Origin: a virus
Reading direction: 5' to 3' (one strand)
IMG/VR virus record: IMGVR_UViG_3300024346_000010
DNA length: 64,000 bases
The translations under genes and the position numbers were made by a program. The notes below the pieces were generated by a model. The model was not told the DNA's origin, made no database searches, and saw nothing but the letters and a program-made list of their open reading frames with translations. This document shows positions 55,898-63,278 of the stretch, piece after piece (the stretch's first letter is position 1; each line of letters begins with the position of its first letter).

Positions 55898-56365
55898 ATG
55901 AAAATCACTAACGCACTATCATTTATGATGACAGTAGCTATAGTAGTTGGTTTTATTATAGGCTGTACATCAGAAGAAGCAAAGGCCAAGGCAGTAAAGG
56001 ATAAAACCTGCCTCGCGCTTAACATCTACCACGAAGCACGTGGTGAACCAATTGCTGGCCAAATCGCAGTTGCACAGGTTACGATGAACCGTGTAGCGCA
56101 TAAAAGCTGGCCAAATAATGTATGTAAAGTAGTATATCAGCGTAAGCAATTTAGCTGGACCCATACGATTAAAGACCATACTCCAAAAGAAACCGAGCAG
56201 TGGGAAATTGCCAAAGATATTGCTGAAAGGGTATATAAAAATGAAGAAGATGACTTTGTACACGGTGCAGTGTTTTACCACGCTGACTACGTAAATCCTT
56301 CGTGGGCAAATGCTTATACTGAAGTAACTAAAATTGGCGCTCACATTTTTTATAAGAAAGACTAA
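55898..56365 (+). CDS. Cell wall hydrolase, SleB/Hydrolase_2 family
   Basis: CLALNIYHEARGE, VAQVTMNRV, QFSW, FYHADYV.P.W, IG.H.FY; N-terminal hydrophobic segment ending IIGC. Confidence 0.92.
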   Translation: MKITNALSFMMTVAIVVGFIIGCTSEEAKAKAVKDKTCLALNIYHEARGEPIAGQIAVAQVTMNRVAHKSWPNNVCKVVYQRKQFSWTHTIKDHTPKETEQWEIAKDIAERVYKNEEDDFVHGAVFYHADYVNPSWANAYTEVTKIGAHIFYKKD

Positions 56366-57133: not shown

Positions 57134-57169
57134 TTTAAAAGTCACAGTATTAAAACTATAATATAGGGG

Positions 57170-57198
57170 TTTACTTAATCCATCCTTTATGTTAATAT
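57170..57198 (+). promoter_or_regulatory. Probable tmRNA promoter
   Basis: TTTACT-N17-TAATAT immediately before the acceptor piece. Confidence 0.55.
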
Positions 57199-57202
57199 AT
57201 AA

Positions 57203-57592
57203 CCTGTAAACGTTGAAGCAACGTGGACACATTCTGGACCTGGGGGCGGTACCCAGCGACTCCACCATAAGGATACACAATGAAACAATATTCAAAAGAA
57301 TATTTAGAGTTTGAACTGAAACACACTAAAGAGTTGGTAGAACTTCATCATAACACAAGAGATGAAGAATTGAGACTTCAAATTTTAGAAGTTAGAAAAA
57401 CTCTTGAGCGTATCTTTTTGATGGGGTCGAAATTAGGATCGACAGGTGTGAAAGTGAAAGTGGAGTTTACCGGATGACTGCGTTATTGGTCAATTAAACT
57501 AAATGCAAATGAAAATTTCGCACCTACAGGTTACGCCCTAGCGGCATAATGCTGGTGGGTATGAGCACCACCTAGAAACAGAACGGACTCGC
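57203..57592 (+). ncRNA. ssrA: Circularly permuted two-piece tmRNA: acceptor piece about 57203-57267, intervening segment 57268-57422, coding piece 57423 to about 57592
   Basis: T-arm ctggg-ggcggta-cccag then CGACTCC-A-CCA (57257-57267), which pairs with downstream GGGGTCG (57423-57429) including G3.U70. D-loop-like AAATTAGGATCGAC. Tag GCA AAT GAA...GCG GCA TAA = ANENFAPTGYALAA* (57505-57549). Outer ends are approximate. Confidence 0.93.
57280..57477 (+). CDS. Putative small protein starting in the tmRNA intervening segment and ending inside the coding piece
   Basis: SD-like aagga before ATG; 47 stop-free codons in the AT-rich intervening segment; charged helical composition. Confidence 0.45.
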   Translation: MKQYSKEYLEFELKHTKELVELHHNTRDEELRLQILEVRKTLERIFLMGSKLGSTGVKVKVEFTG

Positions 57593-57619
57593 AACAACTT
57601 TAATTTTATAGGACTAAAA

Positions 57620-57955
57620 ATGAAAAATATTCTCTTGGCAACAGCCGCAACATTCGCTCTTACAACTTCTGCATTTGCAGCTGATCTAGGCTATGCCGGT
57701 GACGTTGAATATGATATTGAAACAGAAACAGCTGCACTTGAATTTGGACCAGCACTTTCAATGGCCGGTTTCCTAGTTGAACCAAAAATGCACGCAGGTG
57801 CTACATTTACAGACGGCGCAACAGTAAACTTTACTGGTGTATCTGCAAAAGCAACATACGGCGTAACTGCTAATGTTTCTGTATATGGTACAGTATCAGC
57901 TGACAAAGACTTTAAATACGACACAGCAACAGTTGGTGTTGGCTTTAACTTCTAA
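57620..57955 (+). CDS. Small outer-membrane beta-barrel-type protein
   Basis: Sec signal peptide (SAFA-AD), alternating beta-strands, C-terminal VGFNF beta-signal. Confidence 0.75.
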   Translation: MKNILLATAATFALTTSAFAADLGYAGDVEYDIETETAALEFGPALSMAGFLVEPKMHAGATFTDGATVNFTGVSAKATYGVTANVSVYGTVSADKDFKYDTATVGVGFNF

Positions 57956-57998
57956 TAACTGCCTTTGGCACAGGGATAGGCTATACGCCATCCGAATT

Positions 57999-58028
57999 AA
58001 AAGAGCGTCCTTGTGGCGCTCTTTTTTT
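57999..58028 (+). terminator. Rho-independent terminator
   Basis: aaaagagcgtc-cttgt-ggcgctc followed by T7. Confidence 0.8.
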
Positions 58029-58029
58029 A

Positions 58030-58037
58030 CATAAATA
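58030..58037 (+). promoter_or_regulatory. Late-promoter-like site
   Basis: CATAAATA, the same variant as upstream of gp13 (11646-11653). Confidence 0.55.
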
Positions 58038-58066
58038 TGAATGTTATTATATTATAGGACTATGCT

Positions 58067-58624
58067 ATGTTTAAAAAATTACTAATTGCAGTGCCATTGA
58101 TTCTTGCTTACTCTTTAGCAGTTGCTGAACCAATTGTTACTGAATCCACAACTGATAGTACTGTTACTTCGAATTCGAATTCAACTACAACTGTCAAAAC
58201 TGCACCACCATCAGCAATTTCACCTTCGATCAATACATCGAATAGTGACACATGTACGATCGGTGTTTCAGGCGCGGTTCAAACACAAATTCTTGGTATC
58301 TCTGCTGGTAAAACAGTTCGTGATATGAATTGTGAACGACTCAAAAATGCAAAAACTTTATATGACATGGGCATGAAAGTTGCTGCCGTGTCTGTTATGT
58401 GTCAAGATTCTAGAATCTTTGATGCTATGATGGATGCTGGCACACCTTGCCCATATGATGGAATGATTGGCGATGCTGCTAAGGAAGCTTGGAAACTAGA
58501 TGAGGGTAAACAACCATCAAATGTAAAACGAAGCACTATTCTGAAAGATATGGATGAAGATGATAAAAGCACTCTTAAAGGTGCCGCTGGTGTTGGTGGC
58601 CTCTTACTCTTATTGCTACTCTGA
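58067..58624 (+). CDS. Exported protein with Ser/Thr linker, Cys pairs and C-terminal hydrophobic tail
   Basis: Signal peptide AVA-EP; PPSAISP; four Cys; ends GGLLLLLLL. Confidence 0.75.
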   Translation: MFKKLLIAVPLILAYSLAVAEPIVTESTTDSTVTSNSNSTTTVKTAPPSAISPSINTSNSDTCTIGVSGAVQTQILGISAGKTVRDMNCERLKNAKTLYDMGMKVAAVSVMCQDSRIFDAMMDAGTPCPYDGMIGDAAKEAWKLDEGKQPSNVKRSTILKDMDEDDKSTLKGAAGVGGLLLLLLL

Positions 58625-59447
58625 AGTCATAACCGGACAAACCAATAACGCTACTAGCAATGGTTACAGTTGGAATATGGCTGATATATTACCGCCCGAG
58701 GCTGGTATAGAGGTTAGTGGTGTATTTCATCGTTATACTATAACGAAAGATCCATCTACTGATGCCACTGTTGTTATTCGTAATGAAGACGCAATAAATG
58801 GTGGTTATGTATACGAGAGAAACGATAGCTGGGATCAGTTACCCGGAAATACTAAAGTTGGATTTGATCCGATGATTACTAACATTCCAGGTAATAGATG
58901 GGGGCCTGGGGAAATATTTGTGAATGGTGATGGCACAATTAGTGATGCCAATATATCATACACATATCAGTTTGATACTTGTTACAATCCTTTATTAGAT
59001 CCAAGCTGTGATGGATATTTTGATTCTATGTATCAATATTTGTTAGATAATGGGCTTTTAGGCACTATTGATTATGATGATCCATATTATGATGAATTCG
59101 TACAAAGATATTTAGAAGAAAATGCAGAAACCGACCTTGAAGAAACTGAAATTCAAGAAGAAGTGATTACCGAAGAAGAAGAAACTGAAGAAAGATCGTT
59201 GGAAGAGGTGTTAGCTATTACAGGCGCTGCAGAATCGATCGGCGATGCAGCTCAGCAACAAGCTGCTATGGCACAATTAACTAATAGTATTCAATTTACT
59301 CCTTATTATAGCGTCACTATTCAAGGAGGAAAATACGAAGATTCTTTATCATTTGAAGATAAAGATATTCCCGACAACAGAAAAGCATTGAGCAATTTGG
59401 CAAGTCAACAATTGCATAGGGATATGGTTCGTTTACAATATGATTAA
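58554..59447 (+). CDS. Exported protein with beta-rich N-domain and Glu-rich linker
   Basis: Signal-like N-terminus; CxxPLxDPSC; Glu-rich tract; overlaps the upstream gene. Confidence 0.7.
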   Translation: MKMIKALLKVPLVLVASYSYCYSEVITGQTNNATSNGYSWNMADILPPEAGIEVSGVFHRYTITKDPSTDATVVIRNEDAINGGYVYERNDSWDQLPGNTKVGFDPMITNIPGNRWGPGEIFVNGDGTISDANISYTYQFDTCYNPLLDPSCDGYFDSMYQYLLDNGLLGTIDYDDPYYDEFVQRYLEENAETDLEETEIQEEVITEEEETEERSLEEVLAITGAAESIGDAAQQQAAMAQLTNSIQFTPYYSVTIQGGKYEDSLSFEDKDIPDNRKALSNLASQQLHRDMVRLQYD

Positions 59448-59472
59448 TAAGATAAACAATCGGAGAACTAAA

Positions 59473-59970
59473 ATGTTCAATACAAAAACACTTACAGTGG
59501 CGTTTTCGCTATTAGCATCTGCAAGCTTTGCAAATGTTAATATTACGGGCACAGTTCAGTCTAAATGTTCTGTTCATACTGAAACTCAGGGCGTATATGG
59601 TAACCCTACCGCCGACAAACTAAGCACTGCATCTGCAGATGGCGGCGTTGTTCCTCGTATTCGCTACGATGTTTCATTAGCTGATAGCTATATCGCAAAA
59701 ATCTCGTACCCGACATCATTCTCATCATCACCAACTTTGAATGATGTTGTTAACTGGACTGGTACTGTTGCGGTAGATAAAGTTACAGATCCATTAATGT
59801 CAGCATATGAAACAAATAAAGTCGTATACGATAGCACAACCGAATACGATATGACAATTGCCGGTAGCACATGGTTCACTATTGAATCCTCTGCCGAATA
59901 CGGATATAATCAGGCTCTTCCAGGCGGTAACTATACTGCTATCGTAGAAGCCGAATGTATCGCAAAGTAA
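59473..59970 (+). CDS. Exported pilin/fimbrial-subunit-like protein
   Basis: Signal peptide ASFA-N; N-terminal VNITGTVQSKCSV; C-terminal LPGGNYTAIVEAEC; SD ggag before ATG 59473. Confidence 0.6.
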   Translation: MFNTKTLTVAFSLLASASFANVNITGTVQSKCSVHTETQGVYGNPTADKLSTASADGGVVPRIRYDVSLADSYIAKISYPTSFSSSPTLNDVVNWTGTVAVDKVTDPLMSAYETNKVVYDSTTEYDMTIAGSTWFTIESSAEYGYNQALPGGNYTAIVEAECIAK

Positions 59971-59971
59971 T

Positions 59972-60343
59972 ATGAAGTATGTGATAGGGATATTGTTGGG
60001 GCTGTCTGGTGCAGCAAATGCTCATGAGATGGTTCCAGCTTATCCTACTATGAAACCGTCTTATATATCAGGCGTGTCAGTAACAAGTATGAAATTATTT
60101 AATAGAAGAGATGATGTTAGATATTATGAGATTGGTGTGTTTACGAGTGAATGGAAGCCAATTGCGTTTGCTTCAGAAGAAAAGATTATAAAGTTAGAGT
60201 ATTTAGGAAAAAAGACCTTTGAGGTTTATATCCGCAATAGTGATTTAGATGATGCTACCTATATTTGCACCTTATCTAAATTAGAAAAGGACAATGTTCG
60301 AACTACAGGAGTATCCTCTAAAATATGTTCGAAAATAAAGTGA
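59972..60343 (+). CDS. Exported protein resembling a single-domain PapD-like pilus chaperone
   Basis: Signal peptide ANA-HE; P........S....LFN.......Y.I.V pattern; two Cys. Confidence 0.5.
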   Translation: MKYVIGILLGLSGAANAHEMVPAYPTMKPSYISGVSVTSMKLFNRRDDVRYYEIGVFTSEWKPIAFASEEKIIKLEYLGKKTFEVYIRNSDLDDATYICTLSKLEKDNVRTTGVSSKICSKIK

Positions 60344-60352
60344 GGCAAAAAT

Positions 60353-60739
60353 GTGAGATATTTTATTATTTTTATGTTAATGGCAACATGCGCATATGGT
60401 GATTCAAGTTCAATAAGTTTAGGCTTACCTTCAATGCCACAAAACTATCAATCTGATAAGTTTAGGGCCGGAGAACTTGATTGCTCAAATGCTATTGGGT
60501 CAGCAACTAATATGGAATTTGGCGTGACTGGTACTGTTGAACAAGGCGGAGCCTTTGGAAATGATACGCCCGGTGATGTTGGAGTCTATGCCAGAATTGT
60601 CATACCTCTTGGCAAAAGAGTTAAGAGTAGAATTGATTGTAATAGACTATATGAATTAGAACTAAAAAAGAAACAACTCGAAGTTTTAAAACTCGAAGCA
60701 GAGTTAAAACAACTTAGAGAATTACAATTTGAAAATTAA
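60353..60739 (+). CDS. Exported protein with beta-hairpin and C-terminal coiled coil
   Basis: Signal peptide; MEFGVTG...VGVYARIVIPLG; Cys pair; LELKKKQLE..KLE.EL..L. Confidence 0.65.
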   Translation: MRYFIIFMLMATCAYGDSSSISLGLPSMPQNYQSDKFRAGELDCSNAIGSATNMEFGVTGTVEQGGAFGNDTPGDVGVYARIVIPLGKRVKSRIDCNRLYELELKKKQLEVLKLEAELKQLRELQFEN

Positions 60740-60787: not shown

Positions 60788-61504
60788 ATGACTATAGATC
60801 GCTCAGCACACTTTGCCCATATGGCAGAGCTTGCGTATAAAGATGGTAAAGAAGCCAAACCTAATTTTAAAAAGTTAGGCTACACCTATCATAAGTTCAT
60901 CGACATTGACTGCGCACAGGTACATGTGTGCTGGAACAAAACTGAAATGGTTCTTGCTTTCCGTGGCACAGAACCGGGCGAGTTTTCTGATATTAAAGCA
61001 GATCTCAACGCATTCCCAGACCGAGCCCAAGTTGGTGGTTGGGTACACAACGGATTTCAAACTGAATTAGAAAAAGTATGGCAAGATGTTTTAAAAGTTA
61101 TGGGTGACAAACTTGGTTCCCGTAAACTATACATCTGTGGACATTCGTTAGGCGGCGCAATGGCAACTATTGCGGCTTCTCGACTAAATCCACATGCGTT
61201 GTACACATATGGATCACCTAGAGTGGGAACTAAAAAGTTCGTTAAGAATATTACATGCAAGCATTACAGGCATGTTAATAATAATGATATTGTTCCAAAG
61301 GTTCCATTTGCTTTTCTTGGTTATAGACATCATGGAGAGCTTCAATATATTAATTTCTACGGTAACATCCGTAAAATGACATCATGGCAGAGATTCAAAG
61401 ACGGTTTCAGAGGACGTCGCGCTGCTTGGAAAAATAAACAACCATTTGATGGCGCCCGTGATCACGGCATGTCCAATTATATAAAATACTTGGAGAAAGA
61501 ATAA
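60788..61504 (+). CDS. Lipase class 3 (alpha/beta hydrolase)
   Basis: AFRGT, VHNGF, GHSLGGA, TYGSPRVG, NDIVPKVP. Confidence 0.93.
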   Translation: MTIDRSAHFAHMAELAYKDGKEAKPNFKKLGYTYHKFIDIDCAQVHVCWNKTEMVLAFRGTEPGEFSDIKADLNAFPDRAQVGGWVHNGFQTELEKVWQDVLKVMGDKLGSRKLYICGHSLGGAMATIAASRLNPHALYTYGSPRVGTKKFVKNITCKHYRHVNNNDIVPKVPFAFLGYRHHGELQYINFYGNIRKMTSWQRFKDGFRGRRAAWKNKQPFDGARDHGMSNYIKYLEKE

Positions 61505-61956
61505 TGCCTAACGAGTATAAAGTAAAAGTTTTAAAGATCGTCGACGGCGACACTGTAGACGTGGATATTGATCTTGGGTTCGGTATCGTGCTCACGGACG
61601 AGCGCGTACGAATAGTTGGCATCGACACCCCAGAATCACGTACGTCAAATAAAGTTGAGAAGATCTTTGGACTTGTATCAAAGAATAGATTGAAGCAGCT
61701 ATTAGAAAAAGAAGCAATCCTAATCACATTCGATGATAAGAATGGTGAAGACATGAAGGGTAAGTTTGGTCGTGTGCTCGGTGACTTTAAATGCGGTGAC
61801 ACTACTGTATCTAAAGTGCTGATTGAAGAAGGACACGCTGTTCCATATCACGGTCAAAACAAAGCAGATGTTGAAATTGCTCACCTTGCAAACCGTAACA
61901 GACTAATGCAAGAAGGTGTAGTTGATCCTGCGGAAGTACAGGCGGCTGACAAATGA
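61504..61956 (+). CDS. Thermonuclease (SNase-like)
   Basis: IVDGDT, RVRIVGIDTPE, GKFGRVLG. Confidence 0.9.
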   Translation: MPNEYKVKVLKIVDGDTVDVDIDLGFGIVLTDERVRIVGIDTPESRTSNKVEKIFGLVSKNRLKQLLEKEAILITFDDKNGEDMKGKFGRVLGDFKCGDTTVSKVLIEEGHAVPYHGQNKADVEIAHLANRNRLMQEGVVDPAEVQAADK

Positions 61957-62234: not shown

Positions 62235-62370
62235 ATTAGTAGAAAGAACGTCTCTGGATGGCGTAGTGTTGATCGGATGTGGTATCGCTATGATCCTAGC
62301 ACCCCTTAATCTTATCGCGTATGGCATGATCGCATACGGCGCTTGGACACTGTTGAAAGGTGAGAAGTAA
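62215..62370 (+). CDS. Small membrane protein (51 aa, holin-like)
   Basis: MNWIKSRLVERTSLDGVVLIGCGIAMILAPLNLIAYGMIAYGAWTLLKGEK; SD ggagg; stop overlaps the next ATG. Confidence 0.65.
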   Translation: MNWIKSRLVERTSLDGVVLIGCGIAMILAPLNLIAYGMIAYGAWTLLKGEK

Positions 62371-62714
62371 TGACTGAGGAAACAAAGGTCGCAAAAGAAT
62401 ATCATCCGGCTGACACCAACGGAGACGGTCATGTGTCTGCTGAAGAAGAAGCAATGTATCTTGAGTTCAAACGAAAGGAACTTGAAGATGCTGATGCTAT
62501 GCGTGATGCCCAAAGAAACATGACATGGTTTGCTCTAGGCGGACTATTACTATATCCATTTGCTGTTGTTCTTGCTTACATGGTGGGACTTGACTCGGCT
62601 GGTCAAATATTAGGCAATATGGCAGCAACATACTTTGTTTCGGTTGCTGGTATCGTGGCAGCATTCTTTGGCTCACAAGCATATGCTAAAAGCTCAGCTT
62701 CAAAACCTAAGTAA
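62370..62714 (+). CDS. EF-hand-like loop plus two-TM membrane protein (holin-like)
   Basis: DTNGDGHVSAEE loop and two TM segments. Confidence 0.7.
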   Translation: MTEETKVAKEYHPADTNGDGHVSAEEEAMYLEFKRKELEDADAMRDAQRNMTWFALGGLLLYPFAVVLAYMVGLDSAGQILGNMAATYFVSVAGIVAAFFGSQAYAKSSASKPK

Positions 62715-62723
62715 GGAAAGAAC

Positions 62724-63278
62724 ATGGCAGAGTTTGAATTTGGCGGAATGACTTTTCGAGGTGGTAAGATGGCGGTTGTACTAACGGCGCTGTCTACTGC
62801 AGGTGGAGCTTTGTGGGGTGGTTTTGAGTTCTATAAAGACTATGTTGATATGAAAGAAGTCGTACAGAATATCGACATAGATAAAATTAAAGCAGAGAAT
62901 GCATTAGTGCAAACAAAACTTGACGGAGCAATTGACTATACTCGCGATATTAAAGATGGCTTGCGTGATGATTTACTTAAGCTTGAACAAGCAGTAGATC
63001 GCATGGAAGATAAAGTAGACGAATCTGAAAATCGCGTTAAAGATGCCCAAGATAATATTGAACAAACGCTTGAAGGTATTCGCACTGAAATGAATCAGGT
63101 ACAAAAAGATGTAACAGCATCTATACGAGAAGTAGAAAAGACTATTAGAGAGTCAGAAAAAGATGTTCGTGACACAATGCGTGAGACGGAAACTCGTATA
63201 GATACTGATATGAGACAGCTTGATAAAGATATAAAAGAAGTCTTACAGGAAGCATTAGATAACCCATTGAACAATTAA
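62724..63278 (+). CDS. Membrane-anchored coiled-coil protein
   Basis: N-terminal hydrophobic segment followed by long helical repeats. Confidence 0.75.
   Translation: MAEFEFGGMTFRGGKMAVVLTALSTAGGALWGGFEFYKDYVDMKEVVQNIDIDKIKAENALVQTKLDGAIDYTRDIKDGLRDDLLKLEQAVDRMEDKVDESENRVKDAQDNIEQTLEGIRTEMNQVQKDVTASIREVEKTIRESEKDVRDTMRETETRIDTDMRQLDKDIKEVLQEALDNPLNN

Follow-up and report, generated by a model that had tools for sequence, protein, structure and literature searches.

In the chaperone-usher pathway a periplasmic chaperone, whose N-terminal domain has the PapD-like Ig fold and whose second, C-terminal Ig domain forms the subunit-binding cleft, acts with an outer-membrane usher of about 800 aa (PF00577) on subunits that bear an N-terminal extension and have an incomplete Ig fold, missing the G strand, which is completed by a donated strand. 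The chaperones of the FGL type (Caf1M/Caf1, SafB/SafA, DraB/DraE) have as their hallmark a disulfide between the F1 and G1 strands (PMC4133393, Table 2). Fibres assembled by strand donation without an usher are also found, namely the archaeal cannulae (CanA) and TasA-type fibres. Among marine T4-like phages, pelagimyophages such as HTVC008M and the methylophage Melnitz carry curli (type VIII secretion) operons, with CsgF/CsgG and curlin-repeat genes, near thyX and ssrA (PMC7029224, PMC9004378). A further class of phage-encoded envelope proteins is represented by the two-component and unimolecular spanins, such as lambda Rz/Rz1, T4 PseT.3/PseT.2 and T1 gp11. Here we describe a locus of an uncultured marine T4-like phage that can be compared with each of these systems, and in which one of a block of exported-type proteins is predicted to have the fold of a pilus-assembly chaperone domain.

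The locus lies in a 64,000-nucleotide stretch (hereinafter the window) of the IMG/VR virus record IMGVR_UViG_3300024346_000010. A sequence-only reading had pointed to five tightly coupled genes, all with signal-like N-termini and paired cysteines, behind a late-promoter-like element, and our analysis confirms this observation. The five ORFs (P2 to P6; Table 1) are separated by junctions of -71, +25, +1 and +9 nt; P4 could also be read as part of a longer ORF starting at 59440, and P6 has a GTG start. A crude signal-peptide rule found 9 signal-like N-termini among about 79 ORFs of the window, of which six are contiguous at 57620-60739. Family alignments showed that the cysteine pairs are invariant, namely C32 and C162 in P4, C99 and C119 in P5 and C44 and C96 in P6, along with C63, C89, C112 and C128 in P2.

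Table 1. Features of the exported-protein locus and its surroundings (positions in the window)
Position	Strand	Feature	Description
55898..56365	+	SleB-type cell-wall hydrolase	N-terminal hydrophobic segment; candidate endolysin about 2 kb upstream
57620..57955	+	P1	Small exported OMP-like protein ending in GVGFNF; a neighbour conserved only in closer relatives
57999..58029	+	Intrinsic terminator (approximate limits)	GC stem-loop followed by a U-run; closes the upstream small OMP-like gene and marks the start of a separate transcription unit
58030..58037	+	CATAAATA	T4-type late-promoter-like motif (NATAAATA), 37 nt before the P2 ATG
58067..58624	+	P2	Signal peptide, Ser/Thr-rich spacer, four-Cys domain (residues about 47-145), conserved C-terminal hydrophobic tail; probably a periplasmic domain tethered to the inner membrane
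58554..59447	+	P3	Signal peptide ending in SYSYS, beta-rich N-domain (about 25-160) with a Cys pair, acidic linker, conserved C-terminal helix motif LHxxMVxxQY
59473..59970	+	P4	Predicted secreted Ig-like beta-sandwich subunit; conserved 11-residue N-terminal extension (xVPIxGxVxSK-C) and C-terminal FPGGxYxAxVxAECIA strand
59972..60343	+	P5	Predicted single-domain PapD-like (MSP-fold) periplasmic protein, 106 aa when mature; invariant N-terminal His and inferred F-G strand disulfide
60353..60739	+	P6	Signal peptide, long beta-hairpin (residues 50-62 and 74-86) clamped by C44 and C96 with a length-variable tip, 30-residue C-terminal coiled-coil helix; candidate oligomeric outer-membrane insert
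60788..61504	+	Class-3 lipase	Inserted between P6 and g184
62370..62714	+	g114	Two-TM, holin-like membrane protein that accompanies g184
62724..63278	+	g184	Sixth conserved member; N-terminal transmembrane helix, long periplasmic coiled coil, conserved C-terminal DNPL motif (i-spanin-like architecture)

To investigate the conservation of this gene order we examined related loci in IMG/VR. The order P2-P3-P4-P5-P6 is kept in all 48 loci found through P4 and in 63 of 63 loci found through P6 that have enough upstream DNA, which is far beyond chance. Further analysis showed that the conserved unit includes a sixth gene, g184, which follows P6 within 400 nt in 55 of 76 loci and lies nearby in 20 more; in the window it is separated from P6 by an insertion of lipase, nuclease and small membrane proteins. 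Relatives of P6 are carried by at least 571 IMG/VR contigs and occur in at least 5078 protein clusters, but megablast and tblastn searches found no P4 or P6 in cultured phages.

The terminator upstream of P2 is strong and dominates the -27 kcal/mol fold of 57956-58040. In L001, a near-identical relative, the canonical TATAAATA is present at the position of CATAAATA, and NATAAATA lies 37-62 nt upstream of the P2 start in 12 of 27 other distinct upstream sequences. However, TATAAATA as an 8-mer is not enriched in the window (9 found against 8.2 expected), and hence the promoter reading rests on positional conservation; some lineages appear to have instead a sigma-70-like, early-type promoter. 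As the late-type promoter is shared with structural genes, it could be argued that the products are virion or assembly proteins, or that the signal peptides are chance hydrophobic stretches. We consider this very unlikely, given that signal-like N-termini are conserved in every homologue despite sequence divergence, that invariant cysteine pairs fit an oxidizing compartment, that the PapD-like fold is periplasmic in bacteria and that the module lies outside the structural gene block.

Sequence searches with the components of the module against Pfam, PHROGs, NCBIfam and PADLOC recovered only PHROG families of unknown function (phrog_20531 for P2, E 6e-14; phrog_37374 for P6, E 9e-9), and sequence and profile searches of the PDB with P2-P6 found nothing. 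Specifically, PapD_N (PF00345) gave no hit at E<=1 by hmmscan or at E<=10 in six frames, and hhalign of P5 against FimC gave a probability of 0.1%. For P4 there was no Pfam hit, including Fimbrial (PF00419), SCPU (PF05229) was absent at E<=10, and hhalign against FimA, or against FimA/I/F/G together, aligned only 20-30 columns. We then turned to structure prediction. The AlphaFold2 model of P5 (pLDDT 92-97 over residues 21-100) retrieved 29 Foldseek hits at E<=1e-3, nearly all belonging to the PapD-like superfamily, and superposed by VIA-align on the whole of domain 1 of the chaperones Caf1M, SafB, FimC, DraB, SfaE, PapD, CfaA and CsuC, with Z 9.7-11.0 and rmsd 2.6-3.4 Å over 100-115 residues (model 17-129 aligned to chain 1-120). 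This bears out the suggestion of the sequence-only reading that this protein is one Ig domain of a PapD-type chaperone, although the same seven-stranded s-type Ig sandwich is shared with MSP/VAP domains at nearly equal scores (Z 9.6-11.0 against both groups). The invariant C99 and C119 lie in strands 97-104 and 117-121, the last two of the model, and are inferred to form a disulfide comparable to that of the FGL chaperones. The chaperones have a conserved basic anchor residue in the A1 strand (R8 in PapD, R20 in Caf1M); in P5 no invariant basic residue is found in the N-terminal strand, the invariant R46 lies in the B-C loop, and a conserved R/K is seen in the last strand, SS(R/K)ICSK. The invariant N-terminal His prompted us to consider a copper-binding histidine brace, but no second conserved His exists. 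In contrast to the classical chaperones, P5 has no second domain, being 123 aa in all 19 aligned homologues, and a search for longer relatives found none, though this is weak evidence. Likewise, no usher was detected: PF00577 gave no match at E<=10 in the 114-kb record, which is 67% complete, and the largest ORF in the module is of 297 aa.

The AlphaFold2 model of P4 (pLDDT 90.1) is a confident and apparently complete Ig-like sandwich of a secreted subunit of about 145 aa, preceded by a highly conserved but unstructured segment (residues 21-31). Its top Foldseek hits are chaperone-usher pilins and cannulae, namely CfaB, FimF/G, CS17, the PapG pilin domain, CsuA/B, Caf1 and cannulae (E 6e-4 to 3e-2, TM 0.4-0.5), and it shares with the subunits of the FGL type a G-x-V-x3-C start, a GxYxAxVxA end and its position next to a chaperone-like gene. 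By VIA-align, however, it is closer to complete Ig domains of MSCRAMM (N3, Z 7.6, the background level) and integrins than to pilins (below 5.9), so that an incomplete Ig fold, which the sequence-only reading would have taken as support for its model, is not shown, and P4 is not measurably closer to pilins than to other Ig domains. Further, the P4 cysteine pair links the first and last strands. Alignment to the CanA cannula subunits is also at background level (Foldseek TM 0.47-0.51; VIA Z 5.7-5.9 over 132-134 residues). With hhalign only the N-terminal motif aligned to FimA/I/F/G (E 1e-3, probability 21%). A divergent sister family of P4 has the same end motifs; all its members are metagenome proteins in clusters of one to three sequences on short contigs, and scans of viral and metagenomic sequences for their genomic context found nothing.

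In the model of P6 the helix is confident (pLDDT 95-96) but the hairpin is poorly modelled (51-59); between its conserved amphipathic strands the tip is hypervariable, differing in length by 0 to about 25 residues. For P3, a low-confidence ESM Atlas model of the N-domain resembles CBM/Ig sandwiches at TM about 0.55, which is only a lead, whereas for P2 the Atlas returned only viral hypothetical clusters. The variability between lineages of the P6 tip and the P3 N-domain would be expected for parts that meet variable host or phage surfaces. Together with the exported-type nature of all members and their synthesis by a lytic phage, this raises the possibility that the proteins act singly or as a non-polymeric complex in the periplasm or outer membrane, blocking superinfection or masking receptors without building a fibre, as T4 Imm/Sp or T5 Llp do; co-infection avoidance has been proposed for neighbouring island genes by Zaragoza-Solas et al. 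We regard this as unlikely, as six genes in invariant order with a chaperone-fold member are more than known exclusion systems need, there is no PADLOC match, and late-type promoters are late for exclusion.

A more serious rival, if still a doubtful one, emerges from phages that carry only part of the module. P2 homologues occur in Pelagibacter podophages, Mosig, roseophages and Ralstonia RSP15; the architecture of P3 is also seen in HTVC115P gp53, HTVC023P gp46, HTVC202P gp25 and Mosig 201; and homologues or architectural counterparts of g184 include HTVC115P gp49, HTVC023P gp48, HTVC202P gp26, Mosig 200, CRP-207 gp73 and CRP-810 gp51. P2-like, P3-like and g184-like genes occur without P4-P6 in pelagiphage and roseophage podoviruses. 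They lie together in HTVC023P directly upstream of a peptidase M15 endolysin, and also together in HTVC202P, HTVC115P, Mosig, CRP-207 and CRP-810. In architecture, though without sequence similarity, g184 has the layout of an i-spanin, and P2, with its signal peptide and C-terminal anchor, that of a u-spanin. In addition, g184 pairs with the holin-like g114 both in the window and in CRP-207, where gp72, 52% identical to g114, also abuts the g184-like gene; g114 is found near the module in many loci. A SleB-type hydrolase, a lipase and a nuclease sit in the same island, and no T4 holin T was found in the genome. These observations point to a possible lysis or envelope role, not considered in the sequence-only reading, wherein g184 would act like an i-spanin or class-III-type holin spanning the periplasm by its coiled coil, P6, P2 and P3 would provide the outer-membrane or peptidoglycan end, P4 and P5 would be periplasmic spacers or regulators, and the complex would help break the envelope or time its breaking. 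A lysis-timing role was argued by Buchholz et al. for the curli pore in the same neighbourhood. On the other hand, none of P2-P6 keeps a Cys at the signal-peptide cleavage site across homologues, which leaves no lipobox-bearing o-spanin candidate and also led us to reject P6 or P2 as lipoproteins. Moreover, known spanins need no Ig-like or PapD-like parts, whereas four extra exported proteins, including Ig-like ones, are present here; adjacency to an endolysin is seen in one podovirus only, the "lysozyme" labels in the roseophages belonging to the g184-like protein itself; and some lineages appear to use the early-type promoter noted above.

The module sits in the thyX/tmRNA neighbourhood, the variable region where Melnitz carries its curli operon; like that operon it is a cluster of exported-type proteins of unknown function, proposed here to serve an outer-membrane pore or fibre system, carried by marine T4-like phages and absent from the hosts. 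We rejected the idea that it is the published pelagimyophage curli operon, because CsgG and CsgF (PF03783 and PF10614) are absent from the phage's own record and from 16 related records, none of the 17 module-carrying records having CsgG, though both are present in HTVC008M and Melnitz. The parts are unrelated to curli in sequence and fold, and the module has not been described in those papers.

Taken together, the interpretation of the sequence-only reading, a minimal pilus-like assembly system on the infected cell, is partly supported. The analysis itself establishes the invariant gene order, the signal-like N-termini or membrane anchors of all members (those of P2 and g184 being anchors), the predicted chaperone domain 1 fold of P5 with cysteines placed as in an F-G disulfide, the predicted Ig-like sandwich of P4 with its conserved extension, and the disulfide-clamped hairpin with coiled coil predicted for P6. 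What these proteins do together is inferred, as are fibre formation, channel formation and the proposed ecological roles. Our preferred, though tentative, explanation is that these phages, in most lineages from a late-type promoter, place a set of interacting proteins in the periplasm and outer membrane of the infected cell. In this view P5 would cap and escort P4 in the periplasm by beta-strand complementation, P4 would then self-associate through its N-terminal extension, P6 would oligomerize into an outer-membrane hairpin barrel whose coiled coil meets g184 from the inner membrane, and P3, as a lectin-like domain on an acidic tether, and P2 would complete a trans-envelope assembly. The result would be an usher-less, chaperone-subunit-type envelope or surface structure, a functional alternative to the curli operon that related phages carry in the same neighbourhood. 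The lack of an usher, of a second chaperone domain and of any sequence-level link to pilus proteins, the sharing of the P5 fold with MSP/VAP domains, the apparently complete sandwich of the P4 model, the poorly modelled hairpin of P6, the occurrence of P2-, P3- and g184-like genes without P4-P6 in podoviruses, and the sigma-70-like promoters of some lineages speak against it.

A further-reaching possibility, which we hold to be unlikely, is that of a phage-encoded, usher-independent donor-strand assembly system, in which a one-domain PapD-like chaperone (P5), an Ig-like subunit (P4) and an oligomeric hairpin-plus-coiled-coil pore (P6) tied to the inner membrane (g184, P2) would replace the two-domain chaperone and the 800-residue usher and build fibres or a coat on infected marine bacteria; this would be a second, independent fibre system in marine T4-like phages besides curli. 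Chaperone-usher assembly is thought to need a two-domain chaperone and a large usher, and we know of no report of one in a lytic phage. A working minimal version would show how little is needed for donor-strand assembly across an outer membrane, and that abundant ocean phages remodel the surface of the cells they infect, with a bearing on aggregation, grazing, superinfection and carbon export. If the module is instead the missing lysis machinery of marine T4-like phages and pelagiphages, it would fill a long-standing gap, as no spanins or holins are known for these viruses. Either way the module is common and entirely unannotated.

P1 gave a weak NCBIfam hit to an outer-membrane beta-barrel family, covering the signal peptide only. 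The SleB-type hydrolase (Pfam Hydrolase_2, E 2e-28; PHROG endolysin) recurs beside the module in relatives. The lipase (Pfam Lipase_3, E 2.5e-22) is not separated from P6 by a terminator, as judged from the predicted fold of the junction, and is present after g184 in other lineages.

The window is part of a 114-kb, about 67% complete IMG/VR record of a marine T4-like myovirus, whose major capsid protein is 61-66% identical to those of phage C48C1, methylophage Melnitz and pelagiphage HTVC008M. Just upstream of the gene block under study it carries a permuted, alphaproteobacterial-type two-piece tmRNA gene with the tag ANENFAPTGYALAA, which scores 93 bits against Rfam RF01849 and 98 bits against RF04321. 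Phage tmRNAs of this kind have already been reported for Melnitz-like phages (PMC9004378).

The sequence-only reading had described five consecutive, tightly coupled genes for exported proteins (their products are here termed P2 to P6), and this observation held, with the five ORFs being as described. The junctions between them are -71, +25, +1 and +9 nt, and plausible ribosome-binding sites precede P2, P4 and P6. In the 71-nt out-of-frame overlap of P2 and P3 the same DNA encodes the C-terminal hydrophobic anchor of P2 (GVGGLLLLLLL) and the signal peptide of P3. An overlap of 65-75 nt is kept in most relatives, whereas in one relative, L005, it is only 4 nt and both features still exist, indicating that both are real. 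A strong terminator ends the preceding gene and is followed by CATAAATA. The near-identical relative L001 has the canonical TATAAATA at the same spot, and NATAAATA lies 37-62 nt upstream of the first gene in 12 of 27 other distinct upstream sequences. As the 8-mer alone is not enriched in the window, this positional conservation is the real evidence for the promoter. One lineage (loci L014, L016 and L043) has a sigma-70-like TTGACA-N17-TATAGT upstream of the P2 homologue in place of the NATAAATA late motif, suggesting that the timing of expression of the module may differ between lineages. A crude signal-peptide rule marks 9 of about 79 ORFs, of which six are contiguous, and signal-like N-termini persist in every homologue although their sequences drift. 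The Cys pairs are likewise invariant. The protein encoded just before P2 is small and exported (91 aa when mature), with amphipathic strands and a C-terminal GVGFNF; it is too short for a monomeric 8-strand barrel and is conserved only in closer relatives of the phage.

Coordinates of features in the window and in the retrieved loci of related phages (locus handle before the colon; empty cells, not stated)
Feature	Position	Strand
thyX	54926	
SleB-type hydrolase	55898	
Permuted two-piece tmRNA gene	57167-57593 (about)	+
Six contiguous ORFs with signal-like N-termini	57620-60739	
Small exported protein ending in GVGFNF	57620-57955	+
Terminator of the preceding gene	57999-58029 (about)	
CATAAATA	58030-58037	
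P2	58067	
Overlap of P2 and P3	58554-58624	
P5 residues 18-25	60023-60046	
Class-3 lipase and SNase-like nuclease	60788-61956	
g114, two-TM holin-like protein	62370-62714	
g184, TM helix plus coiled coil	62724-63278	
CRP-207 gp73	L060:3292-3873	
CRP-207 region with neighbouring g114-like (gp72) and g184-like genes	L060:3292-4226	
CRP-810 gp51	L055:5204-5626	
HTVC008M, genes after CsgG	L054:7639-8964	
Melnitz, genes after CsgG	L063:8016-10810	

To determine the true extent of the unit we compared loci retrieved in two independent ways. The 48 loci fetched through P4 (50-63% identity) all show P2-P3-P4-P5-P6 in that order. A retrieval through P6 showed that at least 571 IMG/VR stretches encode relatives, of which 80 were kept, and 63 of the 63 among these with enough upstream DNA have all four upstream genes in order. 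A further protein, g184, with an N-terminal transmembrane helix, a long coiled coil and a conserved DNPL end, lies within 400 nt after P6 in 55 of 76 loci and nearby in 20 more. Hence, the conserved unit comprises six genes. In the window a class-3 lipase, an SNase-like nuclease and small membrane proteins have been inserted between P6 and g184, with no terminator after P6, while in other lineages the lipase follows g184; together with the upstream SleB-type hydrolase the lipase and the nuclease form an envelope and degradation island. The families are large and unnamed, with 604 clusters for P5 and at least 5078 for P6, all of them "hypothetical" and devoid of Pfam domains.

Searches with P2-P6, as single sequences or as profiles, recovered no match in Pfam, NCBIfam, PADLOC or among PDB chains. 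Six-frame searches of the record likewise showed that PapD_N, SCPU, Usher and T4 holin T are absent even at E<=10, and CsgG and CsgF at E<=1. P4, folded with a 20-sequence alignment, gives a confident model (pLDDT 90.1) of a multi-stranded beta-sandwich beginning at Cys32, in which the conserved residues 21-31 are left without structure. The best PDB hits recovered by Foldseek are chaperone-usher pilins (CfaB at E 6e-4, FimF/G, CS17, the PapG pilin domain, CsuA/B and Caf1) and archaeal cannulae, albeit with TM-scores of only 0.4-0.5. VIA-align instead ranks MSCRAMM N3 and integrin Ig domains first, at Z 7.6, which is the stated background level, with pilins scoring below 5.9. A profile search of 1.84 billion representatives with P4 found only 124 hits, including about ten divergent full-length proteins that share its layout of a signal peptide, a V-x-F-x-G-x-V-x3-C start and an FPxGxYxAxVxVxC end. 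These have no Pfam domains and are metagenome proteins in clusters of one to three sequences. An hhalign comparison against FimA/I/F/G aligns only the N-terminal motif (E 1e-3, probability 21%), which is a resemblance and not membership.

As P5 and P6 lie in one reading frame, they were folded as a read-through chain (TGA read as Trp) with a checked alignment. The P5 part is very confident (pLDDT 92-97), and Foldseek gives 29 hits at E<=1e-3, almost all from the PapD-like superfamily. VIA-align superposes model residues 17-129 on residues 1-120 of Caf1M, SafB, FimC, DraB, SfaE, PapD, CfaA and CsuC at Z 9.7-11.0 and rmsd 2.6-3.4 A, although MSP/VAP domains score within about one Z unit. The invariant Cys99 and Cys119 of P5 sit in the last two strands of the model, and an F1-G1 disulfide is a defining trait of FGL chaperones (PMC4133393). 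The first residue of mature P5 is an invariant His in the motif H-E-x-T-P-T-Y-P, directly after the predicted A-x-A cleavage site; as no second conserved His exists, a metal-binding histidine brace is not supported. The P6 part has a long hairpin (P6 residues 50-62 and 74-86), modelled at low confidence, followed by a confident 30-residue helix. In the P6 alignment the hairpin tip varies by 0 to about 25 residues between conserved amphipathic strands, which are flanked by the invariant Cys pair.

Comparison with related phages provided further contextual information. Curli operons have been described in pelagimyophages and in Melnitz by Zaragoza-Solas et al. and Buchholz et al., and we confirmed bona fide CsgG in both HTVC008M and Melnitz, along with curlin-repeat genes. 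The "hypothetical" genes after CsgG carry curlin-type repeats, and Melnitz annotates two curlin-repeat proteins and a FecR-domain protein, suggesting that the phage curli operons may encode their own fibre subunits. In Melnitz the operon lies about 2 kb after thyX and about 4.3 kb after the tmRNA gene, and thyX and the tmRNA gene also lie close to P2 in the window (see table). None of the 17 module-carrying records, all of which are partial genome fragments, has CsgG, and conversely HTVC008M and Melnitz lack P2 and P4. The two modules therefore look like alternative occupants of one genomic neighbourhood.

The predicted fold of P5, its inferred FGL-like disulfide, its position beside an Ig-like subunit with a conserved free N-terminal extension, and the curli precedent make a chaperone-subunit-type envelope or surface assembly the best single explanation, though only a tentative one. 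The gene order, the persistence of signal-like N-termini and the invariant cysteines are established directly by the sequence comparisons, and the folds of P4 and P5 are predicted by confident models, whereas the assembly of a structure and any function in the infected cell are inferred. The module fails several defining tests of the chaperone-usher family, in that no usher, no second chaperone domain and no sequence membership were found, and we therefore do not file it as a member. The proposal from sequence alone that these genes resemble a minimal pilus or fimbria assembly system is only partly supported. Superinfection exclusion without polymerisation is a third, unlikely option, ranking behind a role in lysis.

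This role in lysis or outer-membrane disruption, itself doubtful but nearly as likely as the assembly, is raised by a wider distribution of some of the components. Proteins with a P2-like domain, followed by a P3-like protein (with a signal peptide, a variable beta N-domain, a long acidic linker and a conserved C-terminal helix) and a g184-like protein, occur in pelagiphage podoviruses and in the myophage Mosig. The respective trios are gp45, gp46 and gp48 of HTVC023P, which are followed by the peptidase M15 endolysin gp49; gp24, gp25 and gp26 of HTVC202P; gp54, gp53 and gp49 of HTVC115P; and genes 202, 201 and 200 of Mosig. In the roseophages CRP-207 and CRP-810 a P2-like gene and a g184-like gene flank a gene without the P3 layout. 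P4-P5-P6 therefore look like an insertion into an older envelope cassette, which may be tied to lysis. CRP-207 gp73 and CRP-810 gp51 are both annotated as "lysozyme", but their sequences show an N-terminal TM helix plus a coiled coil ending in NPL, the same layout as g184, and the annotation is probably wrong. CRP-207 gp72 is a homologue (52% identical) of g114, the two-TM holin-like protein that abuts g184 in the window, and the g114-type and g184-type genes are neighbours both in this T4-like phage and in the roseophage, suggesting that they may constitute a holin-type pair.
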